Position numbers and translations under genes: made by a program. A model generated the notes under the pieces. That model saw only the letters and a program-made list of their open reading frames with translations. It was not told where the DNA came from and did not search any database. DNA of 64,000 nucleotides, taken from assembly GCA_036338695.1 (NCBI GenBank), contig JAYZBQ010000048.1:382951-446950 (forward strand). Direction: 5' to 3'. Positions 8,585 to 64,000 of the stretch are shown here, one piece after another (within the stretch, counting starts at the first letter, position 1; every line of letters starts with the position of its first letter). Origin of the DNA: Myxococcota bacterium (GTDB taxonomy: Bacteria; Myxococcota; UBA4151).

Positions 8585-8640
8585 CGCGCGCTCCTTGCGG
8601 CGGCACTATGGTCAGGCTCACCCGTTCCGACAACCCTGCG

Positions 8641-37405: not shown

Positions 37406-37476
37406 GGTGTGTCCGTCGGTGGTGACCACCGCTGCCGTTGTGGCGCGTCGAGGTGCGCCTGTCAAAGGAGAGCGAG

Positions 37477-47958: not shown

Positions 47959-49185
47959 GTGGGAGCGGTCGATACGTTGAGCGATGAGCAGCACTTAGAG
48001 GTCCTTCAGAGTTTGGTCGTTCTGTCGCTTCGGATCGCTGCGAGCGGCGCCGCGTCGGACAGCGGGGCGCGCGCCTCGCTGGAGCGCAGCGCCACCCAAG
48101 CGCTCAGTCTGGTGGATCGCCACGCTTCGGTGGAGTTTCTCAGGAAGCTGCAGCAAGACTACGAGACCGGTCAGTTCTCCTCGAAGTTGCCACACGACAG
48201 CACGCCGCCGACGCAGCGCACGAAGCTGTTGCTCGACGCTGCGGTCGACGCGCTGCGGACGGCCGCGCACGCGGACCGTAACCTCGTGTTCCCATCGGTC
48301 GCCGCGCCGAAGGACGGGGAGAGCGCCGATCAAGCGCTCGGGCGCCAACTGCGTGAGGTCGGTGAGGCGATCAAGGATCGGTTGCGGCGAACGCTGGCCG
48401 ACCGCAAACAGCTGGTCCTGAGCCTCGAGGGGTTGGTGCGCCAGATCGCCGAGCTTCAAGGCGGCGGTGACCAGCTCGGACGAGACCTCGACGGCGTTAA
48501 CGAGGTGATTCAAGAGGTGAGCGAGGCGGAGGAGCTCTCGGCGAGCGTGCGCGAGCGGTTGCTCCAACGAGCAGGCACCCTCACCAACCGCATGAGCGAG
48601 ATGAAGCAGCGGATCAGCACGGCTCATGCCGAGATGGCGAAAGCCCAGAGCCGCATCGCTGGGCTCGAGGAGCAGCTCAAACAGAAAGAGGAAGAGGCGC
48701 GCAACGATCAGTTGACCGGTCTTCCCAATCGCCGGGCGCTTGATGCGATGCTCGAGGATGCGGCGAGGCACGCGCAGCAAAATGGCGAGCCTTTGACGGT
48801 GGTGATGCTCGACATCGACCACTTTAAGCGCTGCAACGATAACTACGGGCACCGCGGCGGGGATGCCGTCTTGACGGAGGTGGCGGCGCGGCTGCGCGCC
48901 GAGATGCGGGGCTCAGACTTCGCCGCACGGTATGGGGGGGAAGAGTTCATCTTGGTGTTGCCGGGCTGTTCGCTGATCCTCGGACAGCGAGTCGCTGAGC
49001 GGGTCCGTCAGGCGGTGGCGCGTCGACCCATCGTGTTTGAGGGCAAGACGATCTCCGTGACGACCAGCCTCGGGTTGGCTGAGCTGCAACCCAAGGAGAC
49101 GCCAGGGCAGGCCATCGAGCGCGCAGACCAAGCGCTGTACAGCGCCAAAAAGACAGGACGCAATCGCTGGGTCGCGGCCTGCTGA
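47959..49185 (+). CDS. Diguanylate cyclase (coiled coil + GGDEF domain)
   Basis: DQLTGLPNRR, DIDHFK..ND.YGH, RGSD I-site, ARYGGEEF active site. Confidence 0.92.
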   Translation: MGAVDTLSDEQHLEVLQSLVVLSLRIAASGAASDSGARASLERSATQALSLVDRHASVEFLRKLQQDYETGQFSSKLPHDSTPPTQRTKLLLDAAVDALRTAAHADRNLVFPSVAAPKDGESADQALGRQLREVGEAIKDRLRRTLADRKQLVLSLEGLVRQIAELQGGGDQLGRDLDGVNEVIQEVSEAEELSASVRERLLQRAGTLTNRMSEMKQRISTAHAEMAKAQSRIAGLEEQLKQKEEEARNDQLTGLPNRRALDAMLEDAARHAQQNGEPLTVVMLDIDHFKRCNDNYGHRGGDAVLTEVAARLRAEMRGSDFAARYGGEEFILVLPGCSLILGQRVAERVRQAVARRPIVFEGKTISVTTSLGLAELQPKETPGQAIERADQALYSAKKTGRNRWVAAC

Positions 49186-49276: not shown

Positions 49277-50689
49277 TTGATGAGGCGTCGAGACTTTGTG
49301 CGTTTATCGTCGCTCTCGGCCTTGCAGCTGTATGTGCTGGCATGCACGGCGCGGCGGTCACCGAGGGCTGAGCCTGCCGCGCCTCCTCAGTCGCCGACCG
49401 GGATCGGTCCGTTGATCGACGCGGGCCACGGTTTGCTCGATCTGCCCGAGGGGTTCACCTACGTGATCGTCCAGCGCGCTCTGGACCCGATGAGCGATGG
49501 GTATGCGGTCCCATACCAACCCGATGGGATGGCGTGTTTTCTCGATGCGCAAGGGCGCTATGTGCTGCTTCGCAACCACGAGCTCGGTGACCGCGCCTTT
49601 CTTGCGAGGTACGGTCTCGACCAATCGCCTGAAGGGCTCAGGCGGCCCAAGCGTGCGTACAACGGGCAGATGTTCGGGGGGGTCACCCGTGTGCTCGTGG
49701 ACCCGGGCCAGCTGCGGCGTGAGCTGGCAAGCTCGAAGTCGGCGCTAAGCGCCGCCGTGTTGACCTCCCACTGGGTGCTCGCAGGAACAAAGAAGAACTG
49801 CGCAGGTGGCGTCTTTGATGGCGGCTGGGTCAGCTGCGAGGAGACCGATCAGGCGGGGCATGGTTACGCCTTCTTGACGCGTCCGACCGACGAGGGCGTG
49901 CGCACGCCGCGTCGCCTTGACTCGTGGGGGCGTTTTCGGCGCGAGGCGATCGTCCATGACCCAGACACAGGTGTCGTCTACATGACGGAAGATCACGCCA
50001 AGAGCTGCTTCTACCGCTTTGTGCCAGACGATGGAGCGCAACCGACCGGACGCGGGGTGGTGCAGGCGCTCAAAGTTGATGGGGTGCCTGATTCGTCGCC
50101 TTACGGCCGGGATGGGGGCGCCACGCGTCGATGGGCGAATGGGACGCGCTGGCCGGCGACGTGGGTGACGATCGCTGACCCTCAGGCGGGCAGTCGGCCG
50201 TGCCGCGATCAAGCGCAAGAGGCTGGCGCGACCCGATTCAACCGCCTGGAGGGCGTGTGTCAATCGGGGCGCTCGGTCTGGTTCTCCGCCTCGGTCGGCG
50301 GCGCGGCCGCCGCCGGACAGATCTTCGAGTACGTGCCGAGCGGACAGCCTGATGGCTCCGGTGAGCTGGTTCTGCGCTATGAGGTGACCGATCGGAGCGT
50401 CTTGTCGTGTCCGGACAACTTAGTGACGACGCCTTGGGGCGATATTTTGCTGGCGGAGGATAACTACAACGCAGACGCCGGCTGCACGCATCAGCATCTT
50501 AGGCTCATGGACGCCGGCGGTGCCATCACCGACCTCGCCCGTAACCGTCATCATTTCCTGGAGAGGAAATCCGCCGGAGCGGAGTTCACGGGTGCCTGCT
50601 TTTCCCCTGACGGGCGTGTTCTGTTCGTCAACCTTCAGGCGCCCGAGCATGTCACGGTGGCCATCACAGGGCCCTGGCCTAAAGCTTAG
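49277..50689 (+). CDS. PhoX-family (DUF839) alkaline phosphatase, likely Tat-exported lipoprotein
   Basis: RRRDFV twin-arginine motif with LAC lipobox; LRNHE, NCAGG, SCEE, PDN, EFTGACFSPDG..LFVNLQ. Confidence 0.85.
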   Translation: MMRRRDFVRLSSLSALQLYVLACTARRSPRAEPAAPPQSPTGIGPLIDAGHGLLDLPEGFTYVIVQRALDPMSDGYAVPYQPDGMACFLDAQGRYVLLRNHELGDRAFLARYGLDQSPEGLRRPKRAYNGQMFGGVTRVLVDPGQLRRELASSKSALSAAVLTSHWVLAGTKKNCAGGVFDGGWVSCEETDQAGHGYAFLTRPTDEGVRTPRRLDSWGRFRREAIVHDPDTGVVYMTEDHAKSCFYRFVPDDGAQPTGRGVVQALKVDGVPDSSPYGRDGGATRRWANGTRWPATWVTIADPQAGSRPCRDQAQEAGATRFNRLEGVCQSGRSVWFSASVGGAAAAGQIFEYVPSGQPDGSGELVLRYEVTDRSVLSCPDNLVTTPWGDILLAEDNYNADAGCTHQHLRLMDAGGAITDLARNRHHFLERKSAGAEFTGACFSPDGRVLFVNLQAPEHVTVAITGPWPKA

Positions 50690-50825: not shown

Positions 50826-52301
50826 TTGAGCCCGGGAGAACAGGTGCAGGTCCTACTAGTCGACAGTGATCGTCGGGCGCTCTCGATGATGGACCGAGCG
50901 ATGAGGCCGCTGCGAGGGGCCCGCATCAGCCAGGTGACCTCGCTCAAAAACGCCAACCGATGCCTAGAGAACCAAGTCTATGATCTGATCGTCTGCAGCT
51001 ACGAGCTGCGCGACGGCGACAGTCTGAGCTTGTTTGAAGCGGCTCGAGCGCAGGACATGGCGATCATCGTCGCCTCTGGGTTTTTCGACGAGGCGACGAG
51101 CATGAAGCTCCTCGCGTACCCGCGCGCCCGAATTCTTGAGAAGCCGATTGAGATGAGCGACCTGACGTCCATGGCGGAGGGGCTCTTGGGGGTCGCCCGT
51201 CCGGATGATTTCGTGGACGAGCGAACCGAGCTGCTGAACTCCGTTCGAGAGGTCCCGGCTCAGGCGCCGCCGCAGCCACTGCACAACCGACCTTGGGAGC
51301 ATGACGCCATCATCGGTGAGGCGCCGAGTTGGCGTCAGGTGCTCGAGTTGGTGCATCAGGTGGCCGATACGCGCGCCGAGGTTTTGCTGCTCGGGGAGTC
51401 GGGGACCGGCAAGGAGTTGGTCGCCAAGGCGGTGCACACGGTCAGTCCGCGCAGCCAGCACGCGTTCGTCGCCGTGAACTGCGCAGCGATCCCCGCCAAC
51501 CTGCTTGAGTCGGAGCTGTTCGGTCACGTCAAAGGAGCGTTTACCAGCGCAGTTAAAGATCGTGATGGTCGCTTCAAGAAGGCGCACCGAGGGACGATCT
51601 TTCTCGATGAGATCGGAGAGATGCCACTCGATCTGCAAGCAAAACTGCTGCGGGTCTTGCAAGAAAAACGATTCACGCCGGTGGGTTCGGACAAAGAAGA
51701 GCAAGCTGATTTCCGGGTCGTTGCCGCGACGAACGTGCAGCTGCGGCAGATGGTGCACGACGGGCGCTTTCGTGAGGACCTCTACCACCGACTCTATGTG
51801 TTCCCGATTCATTTGCCGCCTCTGCGGGAGCGCCGAGAGGATATCGAGGCGCTCGCCCTGCACTTCCTGCAGGCTGCTAACACCGAGTATCGACGCGCCG
51901 TGACTGGGTTCTCGAGCGCCGTGCTGCGGGCGCTGCAGACGCACGACTGGCCCGGCAACGTCCGCCAGCTCGAAAACACGATCTATCGGCTCGTGATCGT
52001 CACCGCTGAAGGGCTCGTACAACCTCATCATATCCCGCCGGATCTCGGCCTTGAGCTCCCGCCTCATGAGCCCGCTGCGCAGGCTTCGGTCGTGGAGCCC
52101 GCGCAAGCGATCGGAGGAGCGGCTCGCCCGTCGTTGCCAGCCGAAGGGCTCGAGCTGAAGCGGGTCTTAGCTGAGATTGAGGCGGATTATATCGACCAGG
52201 CGCTCGAGCGGACGTCCGGGAACCGCAACCAGGCGGCGCGCTTGTTGGGTTTGAACCGTACGACCTTGGTCGAGAAGCTCAGGAAACGATCCGAATCGTA
52301 A
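50826..52301 (+). CDS. Sigma54-dependent enhancer-binding protein, FleQ/FlrA-like flagellar regulator
   Basis: Receiver-like N-terminus, GESGTGKE, ELFGHVKGAFTSA, FREDLYHRL, WPGNVRQL, LNRTTLVEKLRK HTH; heads the flagellar cluster. Confidence 0.88.
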   Translation: MSPGEQVQVLLVDSDRRALSMMDRAMRPLRGARISQVTSLKNANRCLENQVYDLIVCSYELRDGDSLSLFEAARAQDMAIIVASGFFDEATSMKLLAYPRARILEKPIEMSDLTSMAEGLLGVARPDDFVDERTELLNSVREVPAQAPPQPLHNRPWEHDAIIGEAPSWRQVLELVHQVADTRAEVLLLGESGTGKELVAKAVHTVSPRSQHAFVAVNCAAIPANLLESELFGHVKGAFTSAVKDRDGRFKKAHRGTIFLDEIGEMPLDLQAKLLRVLQEKRFTPVGSDKEEQADFRVVAATNVQLRQMVHDGRFREDLYHRLYVFPIHLPPLRERREDIEALALHFLQAANTEYRRAVTGFSSAVLRALQTHDWPGNVRQLENTIYRLVIVTAEGLVQPHHIPPDLGLELPPHEPAAQASVVEPAQAIGGAARPSLPAEGLELKRVLAEIEADYIDQALERTSGNRNQAARLLGLNRTTLVEKLRKRSES

Positions 52302-52317
52302 CCGGCTGACCGAGCCT

Positions 52318-52333
52318 TGGTCCGCTCCTTGCA
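52318..52333 (+). promoter_or_regulatory. Sigma54 (-24/-12) promoter for the TPR-flgB operon
   Basis: TGGTCCGCTCCTTGCA has GG and TTGC at exact sigma54 spacing, in a 44-bp intergenic gap. Confidence 0.7.
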
Positions 52334-52345
52334 CAGTTCCCGTGC

Positions 52346-54994
52346 ATGCGAGCGCTTGCGATCGGTTGTGTCTGTTTGGTGGCGTCAACAGCGGACGCAC
52401 AGCGCCGCGATATGAGCCGGTACTCTGAGGTGCAGCACGTGGTCCTCCCGAAGGGGATGAGCACCCAGACTCGTATCGAGCGGGTGCCACTTCAGGCGGC
52501 GTTTGACGTCATCGTTCCTCGGGCGAAGTTTGAGCTGCTGGCGCGGCTGCAACAAAAGAAACCCAACCTGGTGGACCGGATCAACGAGGTGCCTCAGCCC
52601 AAACGGGCACCGAGGCGCTATCGATACAGCGTCAAGATGTACAACTTTGACGTCTGGGCTCGAGTGATCTCCGGGCGAGTTCATCTCTACATCGCTCGCG
52701 ATCGAGCGCCGTATGGTGGTGGCATCGAGATGCCCATGATGCCGTACTACCCGGAGGTCGAGGTCCCCGAGCTTCTCGTGGGTGAGCCTGCCTATTTTCC
52801 GCTCGACGCCCGCTCCATCCGTGATCAAGTGCTCGCCCGCGGCAAGACCCTCACGGACCCCGCAGCTCAAGAACAGCAAAAAGCGTTTGCGTTGCAGGTG
52901 TTTCGGGCTGCTCAAGAGTACAACGGGGCACTTGAGTTCCTCGATCAGCCCGAACTGCAAGAGTCTCAGCTCAAGGCGATGTCTGAGCGGGCGCAGCGCG
53001 CGGCGCTCTTGTTCGGTCGTCACGAAGAGGGTTTTAACGCTCGCCATCTCGTCGGAGAGATCCTGTTTGAGCTCGCCGCGGTCGAGGGTGAGTGGGATCG
53101 CGCGATCAGTCACCTGACCAAGCTGGTCAAAGAGATCCCCGAGACGTTTGACCCCGATCAACAGCTCCGCTTTCAGCGAGCCGTATATCGTTTGGGTCGG
53201 GCGCGCTATGAGCGCAATAAGGCTGGCGACCTTGACGAGGCGGCGAGGCGGTTTAACCAGGCTGGTCGAACCTGGCGTAACCAAAGCCAGGCGAAAATAG
53301 CGTCCTACATCGCCTCGTTGCCAGAGGGTGAGTTGAAGGCTCGTGAGCTCGGCGACGAGTCGCTCAGCGCGGCCAAAGAGCTGGCGTCCGCCGCAGAGGT
53401 CGCCGAGCTTGAGACGCGAATTCAGCTCGATAAAACCACCAAGCAAGAGGGGTTGATCCGCAACTTTCTGACCTTGCGCGGTGAGCTCGCTGACGTCGCG
53501 CGCTACCGCCTCGGTACGCGTCTGTACTCGTTGCGGCGATTTAGCCTGGCTGCGCCGCTGCTCGCCGAGGCTTATCGCTTGGCGCCTGCGCTGGCGCAGC
53601 AGCAACCCGCGATGGCGCTGATCGTCGCTGAGAGTTTACGGATCGTCGGGAAAGATCGGGCGAGTCGTGACCTGATCCGTGCGATCACGGCGCAGCTTGA
53701 GGAGGTGACGCAAGACAGCGAGCAGAAGGTTGACCCGCTCGACGCCCCCGCCTTCGCCTTTGCCCTCATCCGGTCGGGTGATCTCGCATGGCAAGATGGT
53801 GACCGCAAGGAGGCGGAGCGCCTGTACTCTCGGGCGATCGAGGACTTTCCTAAGACCGAGGGTGGCTATCTCGCCCGAATACGCTTGGTCGAGGTCACGG
53901 GTGAGGTCCAGGCGGAGGACTTTCCGGCAGAGGTCTATCGGCGCCTCCAGAGCGCCGTGAGTCGGCTGAGCGATGCCAGCGCCGAAGAGAGCATGTACCG
54001 CGAGGCGCGGGCGCGCTTCTTGAGAGGGGACTACGCCGTTGCGCATGAGAAGCTGCTTCAGATTCAAGATGAATTCGTCGACAGCTTTTTGCTGAGCCAG
54101 GATTCGCTGCTGCTCGATCGCACCCGGTTGAGCCTGATGGAAGAGTTCGCCAACCGTGAAGAATACGCTGAAGTGGTCGAAGCCTTCGTGCTCACCGACG
54201 AGAAGATCGATCAGAGCCCCGTCGGCTCGAGGACCTTGTATCTTGGCGGCTTGGCCCTCAGTCAGATGGGGCTTCACCGACAGGCGATCAAAGCGTTTCA
54301 GCGCGCTCTAGCGACACCCACTGTACGCGCTGATGGGAATCAAGAAGAGCAGGTGCTGGTGGCTTTGAGCCGCTCGTACATGCACAATCTTGACCTCTTC
54401 CGCGCCCGCCAAACGCTTGAGTATCAAGCGGCGCTTTATCCGAAAGGGCAGCGCATCGGCGAGATGTGGTTGCTGCGCGGCGAGGTCGAAGAGGTCGCTA
54501 AGCGCCCCGACCGCGCCATCAGCGCCTACACGCAAGCCTCCAAGCTCCTCAAAGAGGAGATCCAGCGAGCGAATGTGTTGCTGCGCATTGGGCGGCTCGA
54601 GTCCGCGCGCGGCGCGTCGGGAAGCGCTGCGTCCGTGCTCGGCCGAGCTGTCGCCTTGTTCGATCGAGTGGACGCTGAGCAGGTGCTGCCCGGGCATCTC
54701 GACGCCATCTTTGAGATGGGCGATTCTTTTTACCGCCTACGGAACTGGCGGCAGGCTGCCAAAGCTTATGATTTAGCGGGTAAAATGGCGCCCAAGCGCG
54801 ATGAGCGTCGGTCGATGGCGAGTTTCCGAATTGGTGAGATACGGGCTATTTTGGGTGATCTGGCAGGCGCCTTGCAAGACTGGAAGAGGCTCGCAGCGAG
54901 CGGCAAGGGCTTATGGGAGACCATGGCCGCTGGCGCCGTTGAAGACCTGACCTGGCGGCTACGTCACGACGGTCTCTTGAGCGAACGGAGGTAG
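52346..54994 (+). CDS. Large exported tetratricopeptide-repeat protein
   Basis: Signal-peptide-like N-terminus; many TPR-like helices (e.g. ALIRSGDLAWQDGDRKEAERLYSRAIEDFP); stop 1 nt before flgB. Confidence 0.8.
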   Translation: MRALAIGCVCLVASTADAQRRDMSRYSEVQHVVLPKGMSTQTRIERVPLQAAFDVIVPRAKFELLARLQQKKPNLVDRINEVPQPKRAPRRYRYSVKMYNFDVWARVISGRVHLYIARDRAPYGGGIEMPMMPYYPEVEVPELLVGEPAYFPLDARSIRDQVLARGKTLTDPAAQEQQKAFALQVFRAAQEYNGALEFLDQPELQESQLKAMSERAQRAALLFGRHEEGFNARHLVGEILFELAAVEGEWDRAISHLTKLVKEIPETFDPDQQLRFQRAVYRLGRARYERNKAGDLDEAARRFNQAGRTWRNQSQAKIASYIASLPEGELKARELGDESLSAAKELASAAEVAELETRIQLDKTTKQEGLIRNFLTLRGELADVARYRLGTRLYSLRRFSLAAPLLAEAYRLAPALAQQQPAMALIVAESLRIVGKDRASRDLIRAITAQLEEVTQDSEQKVDPLDAPAFAFALIRSGDLAWQDGDRKEAERLYSRAIEDFPKTEGGYLARIRLVEVTGEVQAEDFPAEVYRRLQSAVSRLSDASAEESMYREARARFLRGDYAVAHEKLLQIQDEFVDSFLLSQDSLLLDRTRLSLMEEFANREEYAEVVEAFVLTDEKIDQSPVGSRTLYLGGLALSQMGLHRQAIKAFQRALATPTVRADGNQEEQVLVALSRSYMHNLDLFRARQTLEYQAALYPKGQRIGEMWLLRGEVEEVAKRPDRAISAYTQASKLLKEEIQRANVLLRIGRLESARGASGSAASVLGRAVALFDRVDAEQVLPGHLDAIFEMGDSFYRLRNWRQAAKAYDLAGKMAPKRDERRSMASFRIGEIRAILGDLAGALQDWKRLAASGKGLWETMAAGAVEDLTWRLRHDGLLSERR

Positions 54995-54995
54995 C

Positions 54996-55391
54996 ATGGA
55001 CCGAGTATCCAAAGCCGCAGCGCTTGCGATGAGCTTACGCATGGAGCGAAGCGCCGTCTTGGTGGCGAACATCGCCAACAAAGATACCCCGGGCTATACG
55101 CCGCTCGAGCTCTCGTTTTCGGACGCCATGAAGGACGCTTTATCGGGGCGCGTTGAGCGGGCAAGCCTGGCTGCACCCGACCAGGGCGTAGGGGTGCGCG
55201 GCGAGCCGGATCGTGGGCGCGGAGAGGTGGTCTTTGATCCTGGGCGCGTGCCCGGTGAGGACGGCAACTCGGTCGATCTCGATCGCGAGATCAATCGTCA
55301 GGTCGACAACGCCATCGGTTATCAGGCGGCAGCCAAGATCATCAAGAAAAAGCAGGGTTTTATGAGCTATGCCCTCAGCACGAAAGGGTAG
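54996..55391 (+). CDS. flgB: Flagellar basal-body rod protein FlgB
   Basis: NIANKDTPGY, DGNSVDLDRE. Confidence 0.93.
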   Translation: MDRVSKAAALAMSLRMERSAVLVANIANKDTPGYTPLELSFSDAMKDALSGRVERASLAAPDQGVGVRGEPDRGRGEVVFDPGRVPGEDGNSVDLDREINRQVDNAIGYQAAAKIIKKKQGFMSYALSTKG

Positions 55392-55397
55392 TGAGCG

Positions 55398-55835
55398 ATG
55401 AATTTGAGGACGATTTTGAGGCTCAATTCGGCGGCGATGGGCGTCGCTCGAACCCGGCTTAATGTGACCGCCGCCAACATGGCGAACGCCGAGACCACGC
55501 GCACCCCCGAAGGGGGTCCTTACAAGCGGCGTATCGTGAGCGTCGAAGCGCAACCGCTGAAAGACGACGAGGGACACCCGATCGGTCGGCAGCATGGCTT
55601 GACCTTGCGAGAGCCTACGGCGCTCAAGATCGAGATGGATCAGGGGCCGAACCGCATGGTCTATGACCCGAGCCACCCCGACGCCGACGCCGACGGCTAT
55701 GTCGCCAAACCCAACGTCGACGTCGTAACCGAGATGGTGAACATGATGGCGGCGACGCGCGCCTACCAAGCCGCCACCAACGCCACCAAGAGTGTCAAGT
55801 CCATGGCGCAAAGCGCGCTGAACATCGTCAGCTAA
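55398..55835 (+). CDS. flgC: Flagellar basal-body rod protein FlgC
   Basis: NMANAETT..GGPYKRR, YDPSHPDA..GYV..PNV..EMVNMM. Confidence 0.96.
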   Translation: MNLRTILRLNSAAMGVARTRLNVTAANMANAETTRTPEGGPYKRRIVSVEAQPLKDDEGHPIGRQHGLTLREPTALKIEMDQGPNRMVYDPSHPDADADGYVAKPNVDVVTEMVNMMAATRAYQAATNATKSVKSMAQSALNIVS

Positions 55836-55845
55836 GGAGACGCCC

Positions 55846-56130
55846 ATGAAGATACGTCCAGATCTGGTTGCACCGGTCAAAATTGCGGGAGCTCAACAAG
55901 GCAATTCGTCGGGTAAAGGCTTCGCTGACTTGCTCGCTCAAAAAGTCGCTGAGGTGGATCAGACGATGCGGGTAGCTGATCAGCAAAGCGCCGAGTTACT
56001 CGCCGGAACAGGCTCGATTCATGAGACCATGATCGCCCTTGAAGAGGCGGGCATCAAGTTGCGCATGGCCGGCGCAGTCAGAGACCGCGTGGTGAGCGCA
56101 TACCAAGACCTCACGCGCATGCAGATCTAA
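55846..56130 (+). CDS. fliE: Flagellar hook-basal body protein FliE
   Basis: IHETMIALEEA...VRDRVVSAYQDLTRMQI. Confidence 0.93.
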   Translation: MKIRPDLVAPVKIAGAQQGNSSGKGFADLLAQKVAEVDQTMRVADQQSAELLAGTGSIHETMIALEEAGIKLRMAGAVRDRVVSAYQDLTRMQI

Positions 56131-56139
56131 GGGTAATCG

Positions 56140-57714
56140 ATGGACGCTCTTCGCGATTACGCCAGACAATTGGCGCAAATCTGGGACAATATGAGCAGCC
56201 GTCAGCGCACCGCGCTCGTCGGTCTGGCGTCGGTCGTTTTGATCGCGCTGACCTGGATCAGCGTCGGGCAACGACCGCAAGCGATGCAGATCTTGTTTGC
56301 GGACCTCGAGCCGGCGGACGCTGCGGCGATTCGCGACGCGCTCGAGGCGCGCAATGAGCCTTTTGAGCTGACCGATCAAGGCCGCTCGATTCGGGTGATG
56401 CAAGGGCGCGTGCATCCCTTGCGTATCGACCTGACGGCGGAGGGGCTGCCGAGAGGCGGCGGGGTCGGGTTTGAGCTCTTTGATCAAGGCGGCTTGGCGA
56501 TGAGCCAGTTCCTGCAAAACGTCAATTACCGGCGCGCGCTGGAAGGTGAGCTGGCGCGCACCGTTTCGAGTCTTGATGAGGTGCGCAGCGCGCGCATTCA
56601 CCTCGTGATCCCCAAGCGGAGGGTGTTCGCTGATGAGCAGGAGCGACCGACCGCGTCGGTGGTGCTGCACCTTGGCGGGACCGGGCTGGGGAATCGATCG
56701 GTCAAGGGGGTCGCCCACCTGATCGCCTCAGCCGTCGAGGGGATGGACGCACGTGACGTCACGATTATGGACCAGCGAGGCGCCGTCCTTCAGCGGGCTC
56801 AAGAGGACGAGGGCTTCGCCGCCATGAGTCAGTATGAAGAGCAGGTCCGCACGCGTGAGCGCGACCTCGAGCGGCGCGTGGTCGCGTTGCTTGAGCCGAT
56901 GCTCGGCGTTGGAAACGTCCGGGTTCAAGCCAGTATGGACTATGACTTTGATGCGGTTCAAAGAACGGTCGATAAATACGACCCCGAGCGACAGGTCGTT
57001 CGAAGCGAAGAGCGGACCGAAGAGGATCGCACGATCGAAGGCGCTAGGCCGGCGCAAGGAGGTCAAGCGGGCGCTGAGGCGAACGAGCCGGGCGCTCAGC
57101 AGACGGTTGCCGCCGCAGGCGGTGCCTCCGCCACGAAGCGAGGCACGGAGCGCACCAACTATGAGATCGACAAAACCACCGAGGTGGTCGTTCGGCAAAG
57201 CGGTGTGCTCAAGCGTTTGAGCTTGGCGGTTCTCGTCAATGATCAATCCGAGGCGGCGGGTGGGCAGCAAGCCCAGCCCATCCCGGAGGCGACCAAGAAG
57301 CTGATCGAAGACCTCGTCACCAGCGCGGTCGGCTTTGATCAGCAGCGTGGCGACACCATCAAGGTGGCGGCGAGCCCGTTTCGAACCAACGGCCTTGAGC
57401 TCCCGGAGCCGGGGGTTGACTTCGCCGGCCTGATGCCGCTCGTCCAGGGCGTCGTCGCTGTGATCATCGCCTTGATGGTCGTGTTCATGGTCGTGCGCCC
57501 CTTGCTGCGCCAGCTCGCTGAGATTCGTCCTGAGCTGGTCGAGGCTGCCGCCTTACCGGGGACCGTTGAAGATGTCGCTAAGCGTCTCGAGGAGGCGGAG
57601 CGAGAGGCGGCGAGCCGGAAGCTGCTCGAGCAGCGCAACGCGGTGGTAGAGTACGCCTCGGAGGAACCTGAGAAGACCGCCGAGATCCTGCGCGGATGGC
57701 TGACCGAGGGGTGA
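56140..57714 (+). CDS. fliF: Flagellar MS-ring protein FliF
   Basis: Two TMs, GFELFD, RALEGELARTV, ARIHLVIP, ASVVL, NYEID. Confidence 0.95.
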   Translation: MDALRDYARQLAQIWDNMSSRQRTALVGLASVVLIALTWISVGQRPQAMQILFADLEPADAAAIRDALEARNEPFELTDQGRSIRVMQGRVHPLRIDLTAEGLPRGGGVGFELFDQGGLAMSQFLQNVNYRRALEGELARTVSSLDEVRSARIHLVIPKRRVFADEQERPTASVVLHLGGTGLGNRSVKGVAHLIASAVEGMDARDVTIMDQRGAVLQRAQEDEGFAAMSQYEEQVRTRERDLERRVVALLEPMLGVGNVRVQASMDYDFDAVQRTVDKYDPERQVVRSEERTEEDRTIEGARPAQGGQAGAEANEPGAQQTVAAAGGASATKRGTERTNYEIDKTTEVVVRQSGVLKRLSLAVLVNDQSEAAGGQQAQPIPEATKKLIEDLVTSAVGFDQQRGDTIKVAASPFRTNGLELPEPGVDFAGLMPLVQGVVAVIIALMVVFMVVRPLLRQLAEIRPELVEAAALPGTVEDVAKRLEEAEREAASRKLLEQRNAVVEYASEEPEKTAEILRGWLTEG

Positions 57715-57720
57715 TGAGGC

Positions 57721-58707
57721 GTGGCTGAAGAAGAGGGACAGAAGCTAAGCGGCGCGCAAAAGTCCGCCATCTTGTTACTCGCCATGGGCGAGGAGGCTGC
57801 CGTTCAGGTCATGCGCAACATGCGTGACGATGAGGTCAGCCAGATCGGTGAGGCGGCGGCTGGCTTATCGGGTTTGGACGCGACCACCGCCGAGCATGTC
57901 CTCGAAGAGTTTGCTGAGATTATTGGCTCGAGCTTCAACCTCTCGGGCTCCGACGAGTACGTCTACCGCTTGAGCGTACGCGCCTTTGGCGAGGATAAGG
58001 CGACGAAGCTGCTCAAGGAGAACGAGGGCGAGGCGCTCTTTCGCGAGCGCATTGAGCGCATCGACCCGGTCGCGCTGGCTGGTATTCTTAAAAAAGAGCA
58101 GCCGCAGACGATCGCGATGGTGATGAGCAGCCTCGGGACGGAGCGGGCGAGCCGGGTCCTGGTGCACCTCGACCGCGACCTGCGACAAGACATTGCGCTG
58201 CGCCTGGCGCATCTGGACCGCATGTCACCGGACACGCTGCGCGAGATTCAAACGGCGCTCGCCGATGAGCTCGGCAATTTTGCAGCTGGTAAGGTGAATG
58301 GACGCGAGTACGTCGCCGAGATGTTGATCGCGATGAGCCGTGATGACCGCGACGAGATCCTCAACGCCATCTCGGACACCGACGTCGAGCTGGGCGAAGA
58401 GATCCGTAAGCAGATGTTCACCTTTGATGACCTGCTCAACCTCGACCCACGCGGGATGCAGCGCCTCGGGCGCGACGTCGACAACGCCAACCTGATGCTC
58501 GCGCTCAAGACCGCGAGCGAACAGATGAAATCGCATTGGTTCAACTCGATGTCTGCGCGCGCTGCGCAGATGCTCCAAGAGGACCTTGAGGCGATGGGGC
58601 CGGCGCGCCTTCGAGAGGTGGAAGACGCGCAGCAAAAGATCGTGCAGACGGCGCTGTCGCTCGCTGAGTCGGGGGAGCTCGACCTCGGTGGCGATGAGAT
58701 GGTGTAG
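57721..58707 (+). CDS. fliG: Flagellar motor switch protein FliG
   Basis: GAQKSAILLLAMG, EQPQTIA, MFTFDDL, MSARAA, EVEDAQ. Confidence 0.95.
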   Translation: MAEEEGQKLSGAQKSAILLLAMGEEAAVQVMRNMRDDEVSQIGEAAAGLSGLDATTAEHVLEEFAEIIGSSFNLSGSDEYVYRLSVRAFGEDKATKLLKENEGEALFRERIERIDPVALAGILKKEQPQTIAMVMSSLGTERASRVLVHLDRDLRQDIALRLAHLDRMSPDTLREIQTALADELGNFAAGKVNGREYVAEMLIAMSRDDRDEILNAISDTDVELGEEIRKQMFTFDDLLNLDPRGMQRLGRDVDNANLMLALKTASEQMKSHWFNSMSARAAQMLQEDLEAMGPARLREVEDAQQKIVQTALSLAESGELDLGGDEMV

Positions 58708-58709
58708 CC

Positions 58710-59531
58710 ATGATGAAGGGACATCGCGAGCGCACTGGCTCGATCGTACAGCAGATCGACGACCAAGAGATCAAGCCGACCCTCTTCGGCGCCGCTCTAC
58801 CTGGTGCAGGCGAGGTAGCCGCTCTCGATCTGCCTCAGGCGGTGGCTGAGTCTGGTGAGGAGATCGACCCAAGAAACTTAGCGCTGTTGGTGCGCCCTGA
58901 GCGTTATCAGGAGCGGGTGACTCGACAGCAAGAGGCGCTGGCAGAGCGTGAGCAGCGTTTGAACCAGCAGGCGACCGAGCTCGCTGAGCGCGAAGCTGAT
59001 CTAGGCGCTCGTGAAGAGGCGCTGCTCGCCCGCCAAAATGAGGTCGAGTCCTTAGTCCTCACGGCGGTCGAGGAGCGGGTCGAGCAGCTCAGCGAAGAGC
59101 GACTCGGTGATGACCGCGCCCGGCTGGTTGCGAGTGTGACCCAGCTCGAGGCGGTCGCGCACGGTCTGATCGATCAGGCGCGCGTGGATCTGCTCGAGCT
59201 GGCGGTTAAAATAGCGGGTAAAGTGATCGGCGCTGAGCTCGAGGCGAAACCGCAGCTGTTGGTCGGGCTGATCCGATCGGCTCTTGAGTCGGCGGCGCCC
59301 AAAGGGCGCGTGACGCTCAGGTTGCATCCAAAAGACCATGGGATCTTGATGCGGCGTGGCCCGCAGGTTTTGGGTCGTTTGCCCGCCGGTGTTCAGGTTC
59401 AACTCGCCGCTGATGAGCAGGTCGACCGAGGTGGTGTGATCATCGAATCTGGCGCAGGGCGGCTCGACGCGCGCATCGCCGAGCGGCTCAGCCGCGTGGG
59501 CGCCCAACTCGCCGAGTTGACGGAGCCCTAA
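58710..59531 (+). CDS. fliH: Flagellar assembly protein FliH
   Basis: Coiled coil, LRLHPKD, GGVIIES..GRLDA; lies between fliG and fliI. Confidence 0.88.
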   Translation: MMKGHRERTGSIVQQIDDQEIKPTLFGAALPGAGEVAALDLPQAVAESGEEIDPRNLALLVRPERYQERVTRQQEALAEREQRLNQQATELAEREADLGAREEALLARQNEVESLVLTAVEERVEQLSEERLGDDRARLVASVTQLEAVAHGLIDQARVDLLELAVKIAGKVIGAELEAKPQLLVGLIRSALESAAPKGRVTLRLHPKDHGILMRRGPQVLGRLPAGVQVQLAADEQVDRGGVIIESGAGRLDARIAERLSRVGAQLAELTEP

Positions 59532-60866
59532 ATGAGCATGGCAGGGGCACGGCTGTTTGATTTTGAGCGCGTCGATCAGCTCCTAACGGAGGCCGAGCCG
59601 CTGCCGCGTCGAGGTTCCGTCTTGAGGGCTTCGGCGCATCTCGTGACGGTCGAGTTACCCGGCGTCAAAGTGGGGCAGCAGGTCTTATTAGGGCACCCGC
59701 GACTCAAACGGCTCGGTGAGGTCGTGGCGGTTGAGCAGCGTCATGCGCTGGTCATGCCCTACTCAGCGGTCTCAGGTGTCCGCTCGGGTATGCCGGTCGA
59801 GTCGCTCCCGCGCGCCGACCGCGTCTCGGTCGGCAGCGCCTATCTCGGCCGAGTGGTCGATGCGCTCGGGCAGCCCTTGGACGGACGCGGCCCGATCCGG
59901 GGTCAGGCGCGTCGCCCCTTGCGCGGGCAGGCACCCAACCCCCTCACCCGTCGCCGTATCGACCGCGTGATCCCTGTCGGTGTCCGCGTCGTCGATGCGC
60001 TGTGTACGCTCGGTGAGGGTCAGCGTGTCGGGATTTTTGCGGGCTCCGGCGTCGGTAAGTCGACGCTCCTAGGCATGATGGCGCGGCATGCCGAATGCGA
60101 TGCGGTCGTGATCGCACTCGTGGGTGAGCGAGGGCGGGAGGTCCGTGAATTCGTCGAGCGCGACTTGGGCGAGGAAGGCCGGGCGCGCGCCGCGATGATC
60201 GTCGCAACCTCGGACCAAAGCCCGGTCTTGCGCATTCGCGCCGCAGAGTATGCGGTGGCGCTCGCCGAGCAGCTGCGCCACGAGGGGCAGCGGGTGCTGT
60301 TCTTGATGGACTCCGTTACGCGCTACGCCCACGCCCTGCGCGAGGTCGGCTTGGCCTCGAATGAGCCGCCAGCCACCCGAGGCTATCCGCCGTCGGTGTT
60401 CGCTGCGCTGCCGGCGCTGCTTGAGCGCTTAGGAAATGATGAAGGCGCCGGCTCGATCACGGCGCTCGTTACCGTTTTGGTCGAGGGTGATGACCTCGAT
60501 GAGCCGATCTCAGACACCGTGCGTGGCGTACTCGACGGCCACTTGGTCCTTAGTCGTCAGCTCGCTGAGCAGGCCGTCTGGCCTGCCGTGGACCCGCTGG
60601 TCAGCTTGAGCCGCCTCGCCGCCCAGATCACCACCCCTGAGCATCGTCAGGCGGCGCAGCGCTTTCGCACGCTCATGGCGCGCTTTCGCAACGCCGAGGA
60701 GTTGGTGCGCTTAGGCGCCTACACGAGGGGGAGCGACCCCGAGGTCGACTACATGCTTGAGCGCCAGGAGGCCGTGCGCGCGTTGTTGTGTCAGCTGGCT
60801 GACGAGACCAGCGATCTGTCAGAGACGGTCGCGGCGCTGAGCGCGTTGGTTGAGGGGGCGCCATGA
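59532..60866 (+). CDS. fliI: Flagellar export ATPase FliI
   Basis: FAGSGVGKSTLL, GERGREV, MDSVTRYA, GYPPSVF, LDGHLVLSR. Confidence 0.95.
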   Translation: MSMAGARLFDFERVDQLLTEAEPLPRRGSVLRASAHLVTVELPGVKVGQQVLLGHPRLKRLGEVVAVEQRHALVMPYSAVSGVRSGMPVESLPRADRVSVGSAYLGRVVDALGQPLDGRGPIRGQARRPLRGQAPNPLTRRRIDRVIPVGVRVVDALCTLGEGQRVGIFAGSGVGKSTLLGMMARHAECDAVVIALVGERGREVREFVERDLGEEGRARAAMIVATSDQSPVLRIRAAEYAVALAEQLRHEGQRVLFLMDSVTRYAHALREVGLASNEPPATRGYPPSVFAALPALLERLGNDEGAGSITALVTVLVEGDDLDEPISDTVRGVLDGHLVLSRQLAEQAVWPAVDPLVSLSRLAAQITTPEHRQAAQRFRTLMARFRNAEELVRLGAYTRGSDPEVDYMLERQEAVRALLCQLADETSDLSETVAALSALVEGAP

Positions 60867-61537
60867 AGCTGTGGATGATTCTGGGTCTAGCCGCACCGCT
60901 CAGCATCGCTGCGCCCTTCGCTATTCCGCTTCTGGCGCAGGATCAGGCGGCGACTCAAGCCGCTGCGCCGGAGAAGAAGAAAGAGGCGACGCCTAGCGAG
61001 GCCGCGACCGCCAAAGAAGAGGCTGAGCTCGCCGACTCACGCCGGCGGCGGGCCATGATCAACGACGTCGTTCGTTGTCCGAAACGCCCCACCGAGAACC
61101 AGTTCCGTACCTACAACCTACTCAATGACCAAATGATCAAGCTCAAGCAGCAGCGCGCGCGCCTCGAGGCAGCTGAGCGACGTCTGGCAGATCTGCCGCG
61201 TCAGATGCTCTCCAAGAATCAAGAGTTGCTAAAGCTTCAGCGCCTTCTTGACGAAAAACTGACTGATAAGGAGGTCAAAGAAGCTGAGGCGCGTGCCGAG
61301 CGGATCCGCAAGCTGGTGAAGATCCTCGAGGTCATGCAGCCGGCCGCTGGCGCTAAGACGGCCACCGGGATCACGATGGAGCTGCTCGTCGAGTTGTTGC
61401 TCCGGATGAAGCCCAAGAAGGCAGCTGCCATCTTGAACCTGGTCCCAGGCCCGCTCGCTTCGAGAACCTTCGAAGAGGTCAGTAACCGCAAGAAGGGGCT
61501 CATCGAGGCGCTTCTTGAACGGGTAGGAGGAAATTGA
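60863..61537 (+). CDS. MotE/FlbB/YlxF-like flagellar protein (coiled coil + MgtE_N-like domain)
   Basis: N-terminal signal/TM, coiled coil, KLVKILEVMQP...LLRMKPKKAAAIL. Confidence 0.75.
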   Translation: MKLWMILGLAAPLSIAAPFAIPLLAQDQAATQAAAPEKKKEATPSEAATAKEEAELADSRRRRAMINDVVRCPKRPTENQFRTYNLLNDQMIKLKQQRARLEAAERRLADLPRQMLSKNQELLKLQRLLDEKLTDKEVKEAEARAERIRKLVKILEVMQPAAGAKTATGITMELLVELLLRMKPKKAAAILNLVPGPLASRTFEEVSNRKKGLIEALLERVGGN

Positions 61538-62676
61538 TGCGCATCGATGCTCCAATTTTTGCACTCGATAGCCGGCGTCCGATGCCCCCCGAGCGAGCGA
61601 ATTCTGCGTCGTTTCGTGATGTGCTCCATGAGCAGCCGATCAAGGAGCGTGAGCCGCTCGCTTCATCAATAAACGCAGAAGAAGCGGGCGTCGACGCCGA
61701 GCCGACAGCGCAGGAGCTCAGCGCCCGTGAAGAGACCGACGAAGCTGCGGCTGATGAGATGGACGCGCAGGCTGATGAGGGGGCGCAAGGCGAGGAGCCA
61801 GCCGACGAGGAGGTCGCCGAGGACGAGGCAGCGTTCGCCGTTGAGAGCGAACTCGCAGGGTTTGATGGCGTCGTCGCCGAGGCGATCTCGAGCGAGCCGA
61901 TCGACGCTGCGGTGCGTGTGGAATCGACGGTTGAACCGAGCGCCGTGATGGGCACCAGCTCCCCGGTTACACCCCTTGAACTCGTCTCGAATACAGTCAC
62001 TGTCGCGCCGTCAGGCGCCGTTCAGCCGGTGGTTGGCTCGGGTGATCCGGCGGTTGCGAGCGACTGGATGCAGGCCTTTGAGGCGCAACCCGTCGCCGAG
62101 CAAGCCGCCGCCCAGGCCGATTCGACACCCGACGATGCGGCGATCAAGTTAGGGGTCAGCGGGGGGCGCATCGCCGTGCCTGATACCATGCGGTCGGTAC
62201 GCCCCGTCGCCATCGCCTCCATTGATTTGAGCCAACCTCAGGCGACGCAGAATCTTCAAGAGGCGGTGGCGTTTCAGATCCGTGCCTCGCAGAGCCCTTC
62301 GGGCGCGAAGCAGCTGAGCTTGACGCTCAATCCGGAAGGGCTCGGTCGACTGCGTATCCTGGCGCAAACCGAAGGCGAGACCGTGCGCGTGTCCCTTAAG
62401 GTTGAGCAAGGTGATGCGGCGCGCTTGCTTGAGCGCATGATGCCGCAGATCGAGGCACAGCTCGCTGCGTCGATGGCGATGCCCGTTGAGTTTGACGTGA
62501 TCCAAGAAGAGCGCATCGGCGCCGAGGGCGAGGACCTGTACGAGGCGGACACCGAGGATCAGCCCGGTCAAGATCACCAAGAACAAGCGGATGACGACGG
62601 GCTCGTTGAGCAATGGACCCAAAGCCTAGAAGAGCCCGTGCTCGATCTAGGTCAAACCCTTCACGTGGTGGCGTAG
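61537..62676 (+). CDS. fliK: Flagellar hook-length control protein FliK
   Basis: Disordered acidic N-terminus, LTLNPEGLGRL C-terminal motif; upstream of flgD. Confidence 0.85.
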   Translation: MRIDAPIFALDSRRPMPPERANSASFRDVLHEQPIKEREPLASSINAEEAGVDAEPTAQELSAREETDEAAADEMDAQADEGAQGEEPADEEVAEDEAAFAVESELAGFDGVVAEAISSEPIDAAVRVESTVEPSAVMGTSSPVTPLELVSNTVTVAPSGAVQPVVGSGDPAVASDWMQAFEAQPVAEQAAAQADSTPDDAAIKLGVSGGRIAVPDTMRSVRPVAIASIDLSQPQATQNLQEAVAFQIRASQSPSGAKQLSLTLNPEGLGRLRILAQTEGETVRVSLKVEQGDAARLLERMMPQIEAQLAASMAMPVEFDVIQEERIGAEGEDLYEADTEDQPGQDHQEQADDDGLVEQWTQSLEEPVLDLGQTLHVVA

Positions 62677-62678
62677 AC

Positions 62679-63344
62679 ATGCCGATTAGCGCAACTCAGA
62701 CCGACTTTTTGTTACAGCCCGGGAACCGTCCACAAGATGGCGGGAAGAAGGATCTCGATCGCGAAGCCTTCCTCAAGCTTTTGGTGGCGCAGCTCAAGCA
62801 TCAAGATCCACTTGAGCCGATGGAGGACGTTGAATTTATCGGGCAGCTCACTCAGTTTTCAAACCTCGAGCAGGTGATGAAGACGAACACGAAGCTCGAC
62901 GAGCTCTCGATGGCGACCGGCGCGCAGGTCTCATCCCAAGCGATCAACATGGTCGGCCGAACGGTCGTGATCCCGAACGATCAGCTGACGCTTGAGGAGA
63001 CGGGCGACGTCGAGCTCAAAGTAGATGTCCCGACGACCATCGCCGGCGGCGAGGTGGTGATCACCGATCAGGCAGGTCGTGTGGTGCGGCGGCTGCCGAT
63101 CAATTCGGCGAACGCAGGTCGTGGGACGGTCGTCTGGGATGGTCGCGACGCAGACGGCCAGCGCCTGGAGGCCGGCGAGTATGGCGTCCGCGCCAAAGGC
63201 GTGACGCCTTCGGGAAGTGAGATCGAGATGGGCGTCATGGCGCCGGCGAAGGTTGAGGCGGTGGTTTGGCAGGAGGGCGTGCCGATGCTGCGGCTCTTTG
63301 ACCAGTTGGTCCCCCTCTCGTCCGTGCAAGAGGTCTGGTCCTAA
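62679..63344 (+). CDS. flgD: Flagellar hook capping protein FlgD
   Basis: FLKLLVAQLKHQDPLEPM, QLTQFSNLEQ, WDGRDADG. Confidence 0.95.
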   Translation: MPISATQTDFLLQPGNRPQDGGKKDLDREAFLKLLVAQLKHQDPLEPMEDVEFIGQLTQFSNLEQVMKTNTKLDELSMATGAQVSSQAINMVGRTVVIPNDQLTLEETGDVELKVDVPTTIAGGEVVITDQAGRVVRRLPINSANAGRGTVVWDGRDADGQRLEAGEYGVRAKGVTPSGSEIEMGVMAPAKVEAVVWQEGVPMLRLFDQLVPLSSVQEVWS

Positions 63345-63374
63345 GACAGATTCGCTCCTGAGGCAGCGGCGAGA

Positions 63375-63420
63375 GCGAGCGCGGCGCCTTAGCCAGGTGC
63401 GGCGCTCGCCTCCGTTTTTT
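63375..63420 (+). terminator. Rho-independent terminator after flgD
   Basis: GCGAGCGC-G-GCGCCT / AGGTGC-G-GCGCTCGC hairpin followed by TTTTTT. Confidence 0.65.
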
Positions 63421-63529
63421 ACCTGGATAAAAAAGTCCAAATTTTTCAGGAAATTCGAGCGCGGAAGCTAAACTTGACGAGTCGGTGGCCCGTTGACTGA
63501 GACAGCGTAAAATCGGGAGACGCTGCCGC

Positions 63530-63925
63530 TTGGATTCGCTGCGTATTATTCAGCCGCCTCAACGCGTTGAGCCACAAAGCGGTCAGATCCGCCCCGTGGG
63601 TCGTGGCGGCGTCGGCTCAGCGTTTTCGGAGGTTTTGGCGCGGGCTGTGGCGCGACGGGAGCCGGTTCATGTCGGCGCCGAGGTGCGCGATCGCTTGCTT
63701 CGGAGTGAGACCGAGTGGACTCCCGAGCTTCAGGCGCAGCTGGGCGAGGTGATGGGTCGTTTTGTCCAGCGCGGCTCGACGCGCGGCGTCGTGCTGCATG
63801 ATGCACGCGCCTTTGTTTTGTCGGTGCCTGAGCGTGAGCTCGTGGACGTCGTCAAAGCTGAAGACCTCGGCAATGGTGTGGTCGATGGAATCGACGCGTT
63901 TGCGCTTGTTGCAGACGCGAATTAG
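63530..63925 (+). CDS. Flagellar operon protein (TIGR02530-like) between flgD and flgE
   Basis: Position, plus C-terminal AFVLSVPERELV...VVDGIDA similar to the AxVVSVxNRTVIT...FTNID family pattern. Confidence 0.6.
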   Translation: MDSLRIIQPPQRVEPQSGQIRPVGRGGVGSAFSEVLARAVARREPVHVGAEVRDRLLRSETEWTPELQAQLGEVMGRFVQRGSTRGVVLHDARAFVLSVPERELVDVVKAEDLGNGVVDGIDAFALVADAN

Positions 63926-63934
63926 GAGGGTCAG

Positions 63935-64000
63935 ATGTCCCTGTTTAGTACCTTGTATATCGGCGTTTCTGGGATGGCCTCAAACGGCGCTGGGATCGAA
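63935..64000 (+). CDS. flgE: Flagellar hook protein FlgE, N-terminal fragment (truncated by window edge)
   Basis: AGGAGG RBS, MSLFSTLYIGVSGMASNG is typical of a hook/rod N-terminus; canonical position. Confidence 0.75.
   Translation, partial: MSLFSTLYIGVSGMASNGAGIE

Follow-up and report, generated by a model that had tools for sequence, protein, structure and literature searches.

A genome that otherwise looks myxobacterial carries what appears to be an intact flagellar gene cluster, which raises two questions: is the flagellum complete and native to the lineage, and if so, how is it controlled? The cluster lies at positions 50826 to 64000 of a 64,000-nucleotide stretch of DNA (the window) from the Myxococcota bacterium assembly GCA_036338695.1, which we call G000 (3.36 Mb, 93.6% complete, 1% contaminated). 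The window is the final 64 kb of contig C48, and C15, C63, C75 and C76 are further contigs of the same genome; other genomes, fetched loci and families of the phylum are labelled G###, L### and f##. Our data indicate that G000 likely belongs to an uncultured, small-genome Myxococcota family with a complete flagellar gene set, whose basal-body half lies in the window; the set was probably inherited vertically and likely yields a working polar flagellum, operated without classical chemotaxis.

All genes from 50826 to the end of the window lie on the + strand. Above curated NCBIfam cut-offs we identified the proximal rod genes flgB (54996..55391, TIGR01396) and flgC (55398..55835, TIGR01395), the rod-MS ring adaptor fliE (55846..56130, TIGR00205), the MS ring gene fliF (56140..57714, TIGR00206) and the rotor/switch gene fliG (57721..58707, TIGR00207). 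Above Pfam cut-offs we identified fliH (ATPase stalk, 58710..59531, PF02108), fliK (hook-length control, 61534..62676, PF02120) and flgD (hook cap, 62679..63344, PF03963, PF13860 and PF13861). The export ATPase gene fliI (59532..60866, TIGR01026 above cut-off) encodes an intact Walker A motif; it passed the FliI/YscN subfamily cut-off (512 versus 379.5 bits) and did not reach three FliI clade cut-offs. An earlier note on this DNA had described an intact flgB-to-flgE cluster, as these matches bear out, and had called flgD-flgE uninterrupted. Both of the latter genes are present, but a small flagellar-operon protein of 131 amino acids lies between them (63530..63925; TIGR02530-like, E 4e-4, under cut-off; a homologue occupies the same position in L059, L060 and L062), and the window holds only the first 66 bases of flgE (63935..64000). 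The entire flgE gene is at G000:C76:76-1356, where it matches FlgE families. The range that the note gave for its listed genes also takes in a sigma-54 activator and an 882-amino-acid tetratricopeptide repeat (TPR) protein gene, which fill the first 4.2 kb and were absent from its list.

From the TPR gene to flgD, intergenic gaps measure -4 to +10 bases, and all frames are open and full-length. Compared with locus L060, the ratio of nonsynonymous to synonymous substitution rates (dN/dS) is 0.014 (fliG) to 0.11 in 10 of 12 window genes and 0.33 in fliK, with one gene saturated. Codon style looks like that of the core genes, as had been claimed: GC content at third codon positions (GC3) is 0.759 in 37 flagellar genes and 0.768 +/- 0.045 in 2418 genes, with codon-adaptation percentiles of 7 to 84. 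Gene order is identical in all four of the closest loci. The genes are intact and under purifying selection. We rejected a pseudogene cluster, a recent island and bin contamination, the last because the cluster shares a 447-kb contig with dnaA, groEL and dnaK.

The remaining flagellar genes lie mostly on C76. The final 141 bases of C48 are the initial 141 bases of C76, so the two contigs of the cluster are contiguous, and the flagellar genes of G000 form two blocks about 56 kb apart. The second block, C76:57182-92155, encodes motor and export components (motA, two motB, fliL, fliM, fliN, fliO, fliP, fliQ, fliR, flhB, flhA and fliJ), regulatory and placement factors (flhF, a MinD-like flhG, fliA, flgM, csrA, fliW), rod, ring and hook proteins (flgF, flgG, flgA, flgH, flgI, a flgJ-like gene, flgK, flgL), and a filament set of four flagellins, fliD, fliS and flaG together with pseB/pseC-type genes. 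Matches to flgN and fliT on C76 are sub-threshold, a fifth flagellin is on C75, and a strict pattern search upstream of the flagellins gave no clear sigma-28 consensus. In the part of PMC11870540 available to us, a complete flagellum is defined by at least 20 of 24 core genes; by family or structure-sequence matches, all 24 are on C48 or C76. The earlier note had proposed a search for flhA/flhB, fliC and motAB, and had named a lack of flagellin and export-gate genes as grounds against its reading; flhA, flhB, flagellins and motA/motB were all found. We also rejected a non-flagellar type III secretion system (T3SS): the myxobacterial T3SS described in the available text of PMC3459982 shares FliF-, FliH- and FliI-type components, but FlgBCDEK, FliE, FliG, FlgH and MotAB are reported there as absent, and all are present here. 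FliG, FliE, rod, hook, flagellin and MotAB, the parts missing from non-flagellar systems, are each found in G000.

At G000:C76:57182-59373 (L014:17182-19370), motA precedes a pair of motB genes. The first of the pair keeps its OmpA domain and has lost the membrane aspartate, and the second keeps the aspartate and has no Pfam OmpA match, a split found in 5/5 family genomes. Away from the flagellar clusters, another motA-motB-motB operon (G000:C48:54067-56555 in contig coordinates, beyond the window) has the aspartate in both MotB proteins. The fliJ gene lies behind fliA, not fliI, at G000:C76:70168-70596 (L015:10168-10593), and likewise in G004 and G005. FliO (L015:1179-2288) is 370 amino acids long with a long N-terminal extension; Myxococcota FliO proteins with AMIN or LysM extensions are on record in the accessible text of PMC12403147.

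A more unusual feature of this family than the flagellum, and one that the earlier note overlooked, is the lack of recognizable chemosensory genes and of MglA. Our family sample comprised six genomes including G000, from two genera and 59-94% complete. None of the six family genomes gave a match to methyl-accepting chemotaxis proteins (MCPs; MCPsignal), to CheW or to the CheA dimerisation domain, and none of five gave one to CheB or CheR; 6-8 of 14 control genomes were positive in these searches. Six-frame tblastn with proteins from a CheA locus returned just generic receiver-type and unrelated matches. By comparison, 84 of 93 other FliG-positive genomes in the phylum have CheA or CheW (CheA in 38/43, and CheW at E<=1e-20 in 46 of the remaining 50). 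Because no chemoreceptor, CheA, CheW, CheB or CheR was found in the family, its flagellum likely runs without classical chemotaxis. Nine flagellated genomes outside the family lack CheA/CheW, two of which have MCPs. The other seven (G027, G041, G057, G045, G050, G095 and G109) have no MCP above cut-off and no CheW, and keep MglA-like genes where these were tested; chemosensory loss thus recurs in three or four other families. We found no paper describing a flagellated Myxococcota family without chemotaxis in a search that left out supplements and most subscription papers, and phylum-wide tables (PMC11870540, PMC12403147, PMC13277936, PMC11937823) may already list these genomes.

MglA is also missing, found in 0/6 family genomes versus 35/37 others, with a best tblastn match in G000 of E 0.96. 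At G000:C48:47095-48417, an mglB-like gene directly abuts the counterpart of a gene that in G235 comes next after mglA, an arrangement that looks like a deletion of mglA; TPR genes and a tolQ-tolR-tolR-GltG-like set are found downstream.

FliM in this family nevertheless retains a conserved N-terminal peptide, which aligns with the FliM N-terminus in 8umd (8umd_C), the established docking site for phosphorylated CheY. Residues 3-19 are identical in 5/5 family genomes and form the second-longest invariant run of the protein; overall 214 of 345 positions are invariant, and only 1 of the 20 positions after residue 19. What might bind this peptide? Among 22 receiver matches in G000 there is one stand-alone receiver protein (G000:C63:24566-24964), encoded between glyA and ribD in 4/4 genomes checked (G000, G001, G004, G005). 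Each of the six family genomes has two Hpt matches, and both of those in G000 lie in HisKA hybrid kinases, not in CheA. PilZ domains, a possible route for cyclic di-GMP (c-di-GMP), gave 4-5 matches per genome in 5/5 family genomes. A PilZ-like gene stands at the end of the flagellin/glycosylation block (G000:C76:91238-92155; L016:15238-16152), with RxxxR and DxSxxG-type motifs that we regard as PilZ motifs.

That a non-CheY receiver, or alternatively c-di-GMP and PilZ proteins, continues to switch or brake the motor by way of the FliM peptide seems to us close to an even call. A more specific history, in which a planktonic, genome-reduced family lost both means of direction control in the phylum (all chemosensory pathways and the MglA polarity switch), kept its flagellum, pili and Glt-like genes, and came to control the motor independently of CheA through a non-CheY receiver that binds the FliM peptide and is driven by an ordinary Hpt hybrid kinase, we consider rather unlikely. 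Several observations weigh against a retained switch. Similar, often looser FliM peptides occur in phylum genomes with and without CheA, so the peptide may be structural; no CheY family is among the top 25 of 95 matches to the stand-alone receiver; this receiver has Cys or Phe in place of a conserved Tyr at the switch position (E. coli numbering); and the PilZ-like gene of the cluster is sub-threshold (E 0.0013) and missing from the G004 and G005 stretches that we fetched. Our FliM query missed families f6, f21, f23 and f24, so loss of FliM cannot be claimed for f23, which lacks che genes.

The wider occurrence of the peptide and the lack of a CheY-family match for the receiver favor a flagellum that is never switched, with straight swimming, control by expression only and a FliM peptide kept for structure, and we regard this as possible while leaning against it. 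The lack of che genes fits such a swimmer, and according to the accessible text of PMC4525482, Aquifex aeolicus swims linearly without che receptors. Aquifex, however, is reported there to have lost fliM, while here FliM is whole and its invariant residues 3-19 stand beside a linker in which 1 of 20 positions is invariant.

We next weighed whether the flagellum is native to this lineage. FliG is present in 98 of 301 phylum genomes and 21 of 35 families, including 22/125 genomes of the Myxococcus-like family f10 and 15/43 of f14. We fetched the surroundings of fliG in 40 of the 93 non-family genomes and found fliF and fliG in 40/40 and fliI in 39/40, with the order activator-flgBC-fliEFGHI...flgD-flgE common across the phylum. 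In trees of concatenated FliF, FliG, FliI and FlgC, set against 20 or 11 Desulfobacterota-phylum rows plus other outgroups (G057 was left out, having no fliI in its stretch), the rows of the phylum group as a single clade that includes the query, with support of 99 for 44 rows and 100 for 26 rows. Most subclades echo the core tree, and the topology within the family mirrors that of RpoB/C. Vertical inheritance, which had been proposed from codon style, is therefore the best reading of the gene order, trees and codon use, and the set is likely derived from the ancestor of the phylum. Some FliG-bearing f10 genomes are 9-10 Mb in size, and six of their clusters (L152, L153, L156, L158, L173, L174) have the gene order of the phylum.

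Lateral gain, from Desulfobacterota or from another Myxococcota branch, would account for two findings. The best FliG scores outside the family are similar (<=217 bits for the Desulfobacterota phylum and <=205 bits for its own phylum), and the flagellar genes join family f18 (99, 93), unlike the core tree, although a tree in which the family branches as sister to all remaining phylum rows is retained (p 0.26). We nonetheless think lateral gain quite unlikely, given the nesting of the query within the all-phylum clade, the match of GC3 and codon use to the genome, the location of the cluster in two parts embedded among core genes, and the agreement with RpoB/C within the family. G031 of f18 (L145, L300) has flagellar genes that group with those of the source family and core genes that group with f11, f20 and f28, possibly through transfer within the phylum or a long-branch artefact.

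The earlier note had taken classical cultured myxobacteria to lack flagella, a premise that published work does not support. The available part of PMC2330069 describes a flagellar cluster of 55.7 kb in Anaeromyxobacter dehalogenans 2CP-C, argues that it is ancestral, and reports swimming by strain K. Partial texts of other reports describe uncultured Myxococcota metagenome-assembled genomes (MAGs) that encode flagellar assembly and chemotaxis (10.1101/2021.07.06.451402), seamount predator MAGs that express flagellins (PMC11937823), and a listing of Myxococcota among motile phyla (10.64898/2026.06.16.732483, a 2026 preprint). Flagella are thus no novelty in this phylum; what is newer is the lack of a steering system.

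The placement of the family itself in Myxococcota is likely, as the earlier note's uncultured Myxococcota-related lineage implied. We scanned 185,579 genomes by FliI, since the FliG alignment was too variable, and the four closest loci were from MAGs named as Myxococcota or Myxococcales (59-84% identical); further matches came from mixed phyla, with no Bdellovibrionota. The relatives returned for G000 were five genomes of the same family and then, at the next level, genomes of the same phylum, with no other family in its order or class. No intermediate relatives were returned, and the lineage is therefore isolated. Genome classification assigns it to the same phylum as genomes bearing MglA and GltG: GltG was above the NCBIfam cut-off in 6/22 phylum genomes searched versus 0/14 controls, and the MglA of one phylum genome matches PDB 6h17, an M. 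xanthus structure, over its full length (396 bits). IQ-TREE (LG+G4) analyses of RpoB and RpoC with 21 and 34 rows place the family inside the phylum clade with an SH-like approximate likelihood-ratio (SH-aLRT) support of 99.

Our own trees fall short of proof, and the family may instead be a long-branch group outside the phylum, not a true myxobacterium, whose flagella would then be unremarkable. A FastTree analysis of RpoB and RpoC on all 61 rows, from which those of the IQ-TREE analyses were drawn, places it neither in the phylum nor in a sample of Desulfobacterota, and an approximately unbiased (AU) test keeps an outside placement (p 0.10); all these trees lack Bdellovibrionota rows, and their supports are SH-aLRT or SH-like. 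The missing mglA and chemosensory genes, GltG-like proteins that fall under the NCBIfam cut-off, and the lack of a shared order or class with other families among the returned relatives point the same way. Set against these are the classification, the IQ-TREE support, the Myxococcota and Myxococcales identity of the closest loci, and the presence of glt-like and pilB-pilT-pilC clusters, and we give an outside origin little credence. The glt-like cluster (G000:C15:20250-29233) comprises barrel-like, TPR, GltF-like and GltG-like genes; G000 has neither MglA nor che genes of the Frz type. A tolQ-tolR-tolR cluster and PilB/PilT-type ATPases are present as well.

The least probable alternative, which we judge very unlikely indeed, is that the organism does perform chemotaxis, with che genes that simply escaped assembly or binning: all six family assemblies are incomplete and such close kin are not independent, a lone CheX match occurs in G002, and public records include a 3.7-Mb contig carrying a 99% identical MotE (looking for a closed family genome turned up contigs of up to 27 kb only), yet five gene families are jointly missing from 5-6 separate assemblies in two genera, and in G059 the che genes lie inside the flagellar cluster while the contiguous halves in G000 contain none.

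We then considered how the flagellar genes may be regulated. The gene at 50826..52301 encodes a sigma-54 enhancer-binding activator (PF00158, HTH_8) with a pseudo-receiver domain (weak PF00072), which we liken to FleQ/FlrA and which is likely the flagellar master regulator; a homologue is present in 36/40 fetched phylum clusters. The phospho-aspartate position is Ser or Ala in the window, L061 and L062, and Asp in 8/8 other phylum rows aligned. With this residue lost in all three family rows, the activator likely works without phosphorylation. A sigma-54 (-24/-12) promoter-like site lies at 54861..54875 on the + strand, 135 bases 5' of flgB and within the 3' end of the TPR gene. This single match in the window, versus 0.53 expected by chance, is by itself no more than chance; the site recurs inside coding sequence at -135 to -139 in 4/4 relatives, and another precedes flgF on C76. 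Upstream of the activator, a GGDEF diguanylate cyclase gene (47959..49185, + strand, PF00990, E 2e-49) is a possible c-di-GMP input, its tie to the flagellum being suggested by position: it lies directly 5' of the activator in G004 and G005. In G000, phoX (window 49277-50689) separates the two genes.

Two window genes may encode stator-associated structures. The MotE/FlgY-type gene (60863..61537, + strand) encodes a signal-like N-terminus, a coiled coil and an MgtE_N-like end, and its product is likely an E-ring subunit. The protein itself has no Pfam or NCBIfam match; among 30 homologues, 6 are named 'MotE' by JGI, and one weakly matches MgtE_N (E 0.003). As a lead only, MgtE_N occurs in 45% and 22% of the members of the top Atlas clusters (scores 0.89 and 0.88). 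The predicted model (pTM 0.29) gave weak FliG/MgtE-like fold matches, none at E<=0.001. The label of a motE-like gene in the earlier note thus fits the position and source names, but MgtE_N is only weakly matched and no fold match is significant. The TPR gene (52346..54994, + strand) encodes a signal-like N-terminus, a low-confidence beta domain and TPR Pfam repeats, and is a candidate for a PflA/MotK-type periplasmic spoke. Its Atlas look-alikes include PflA-named clusters (0.89-0.90). PflA/MotK proteins have an AMIN-like beta domain ahead of a TPR array; the model of this protein, encoded next to the flagellar genes, has the array and an N-terminal domain mostly of pLDDT <50. Fold searches returned generic TPR solenoids, with the C. 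jejuni motor scaffold 9hmf_K fifth (TM 0.26) and not set apart, and PDB sequence searches with both proteins returned nothing relevant. In the available text of PMC13023049 and PMC11870540, E-ring and spoke systems (MotE/FlgY/FlbB with PflA/MotK/MotC) likewise pair an MgtE_N-like exported protein after fliI with one large TPR gene adjoining flagellar genes, the difference being that the TPR protein of G000 is a candidate PflA ortholog.

Together, these data suggest a working model. The activator, lacking its phospho-aspartate, would drive the flgB and flgF operons, FliA/FlgM and FliW/CsrA would time the flagellins, and FlhF/FlhG would direct the motor to the cell pole. An E-ring and stator-holding spokes may be built from MotE and the TPR protein. 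Most speculatively, the candidate stand-alone receiver, fed by an Hpt hybrid kinase, would switch or brake the motor via the FliM peptide, or c-di-GMP might do so via PilZ proteins. The outcome would be go/stop or speed control, not gradient climbing.

Environmental RNA gave a weak hint of expression, and not proof of transcription. The three runs, from salt marsh (one) and marine (two) sources, contributed 23, 4 and 3 contigs on the window cluster and 39, 28 and 20 on the flagellin region, and in run X2, 22 of 28 flagellar genes were covered at 99% or more. In the flagellin region, summed depth reached 96 and 54 in flagellar bins, compared with 0-1.8 in the final six non-flagellar bins, and X4 had a depth of 0.6-9.4 on this region; the run shares are small (0.06-0.14), and contig depth is unable to rank genes. 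This counts against a firm claim of function, as does the fact that the family is known from genes alone, from which we infer swimming itself.

Elsewhere in the window, the parA-parB-bactofilin order and the two Lon genes reported previously were both present. A zinc-ribbon/RDD membrane protein was found where zinc-ribbon/GYF proteins had been listed, with no GYF domain in domain searches, and a supposed MshEN-type protein gave a sub-threshold match only (E 0.022). Other window features are an aldehyde dehydrogenase and arginine N-succinyltransferase pair at 7136-9651 and a 1053-amino-acid adenylate/guanylate cyclase-NB-ARC-TPR protein at 34304-37465.

We compared G000 with three described swimmers, each as far as the available text of its report extends. 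Anaeromyxobacter 2CP-C (PMC2330069) is likewise a member of Myxococcota with a near-complete set, argued to be ancestral, in the same phylum-wide order; its genes lie in a single block of 55.7 kb that also contains two cheA and four mcp, whereas G000 has two blocks, with no che gene found anywhere and no mglA, and fliJ, fliK, flgA and the flgJ-like gene, reported as missing from 2CP-C, are found in G000. Aquifex aeolicus (PMC4525482) resembles G000 in swimming without che receptor genes and in having one motA and two motB. Aquifex has no fliM, and the membrane segments of its two MotB proteins share 97% identity, while G000 keeps FliM with its docking peptide, has one MotB without the channel aspartate, and carries a second motA-motB-motB set. 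Sulfitobacter D7 (PMC9873259) is similarly marine, with flagellar motility and no known chemotaxis genes; it is alphaproteobacterial, whereas the loss in the G000 family occurred within a phylum that keeps CheA or CheW in 84/93 other flagellated genomes.

About one-third of the sampled phylum genomes carry FliG in a tree compatible with descent, which shifts the default picture of the phylum and favors the idea, put forward in 2008, of a swimming myxobacterial ancestor, with loss of the flagellum in the gliding model organisms. If nothing binds FliM in the G000 family, it would be one more non-chemotactic marine swimmer of an already familiar kind. The family is a natural deletion experiment, with a full motor, a conserved switch peptide and no detectable Che system, and in it the question of CheA-free control narrows to one single-domain receiver, two Hpt hybrid kinases and four PilZ proteins.

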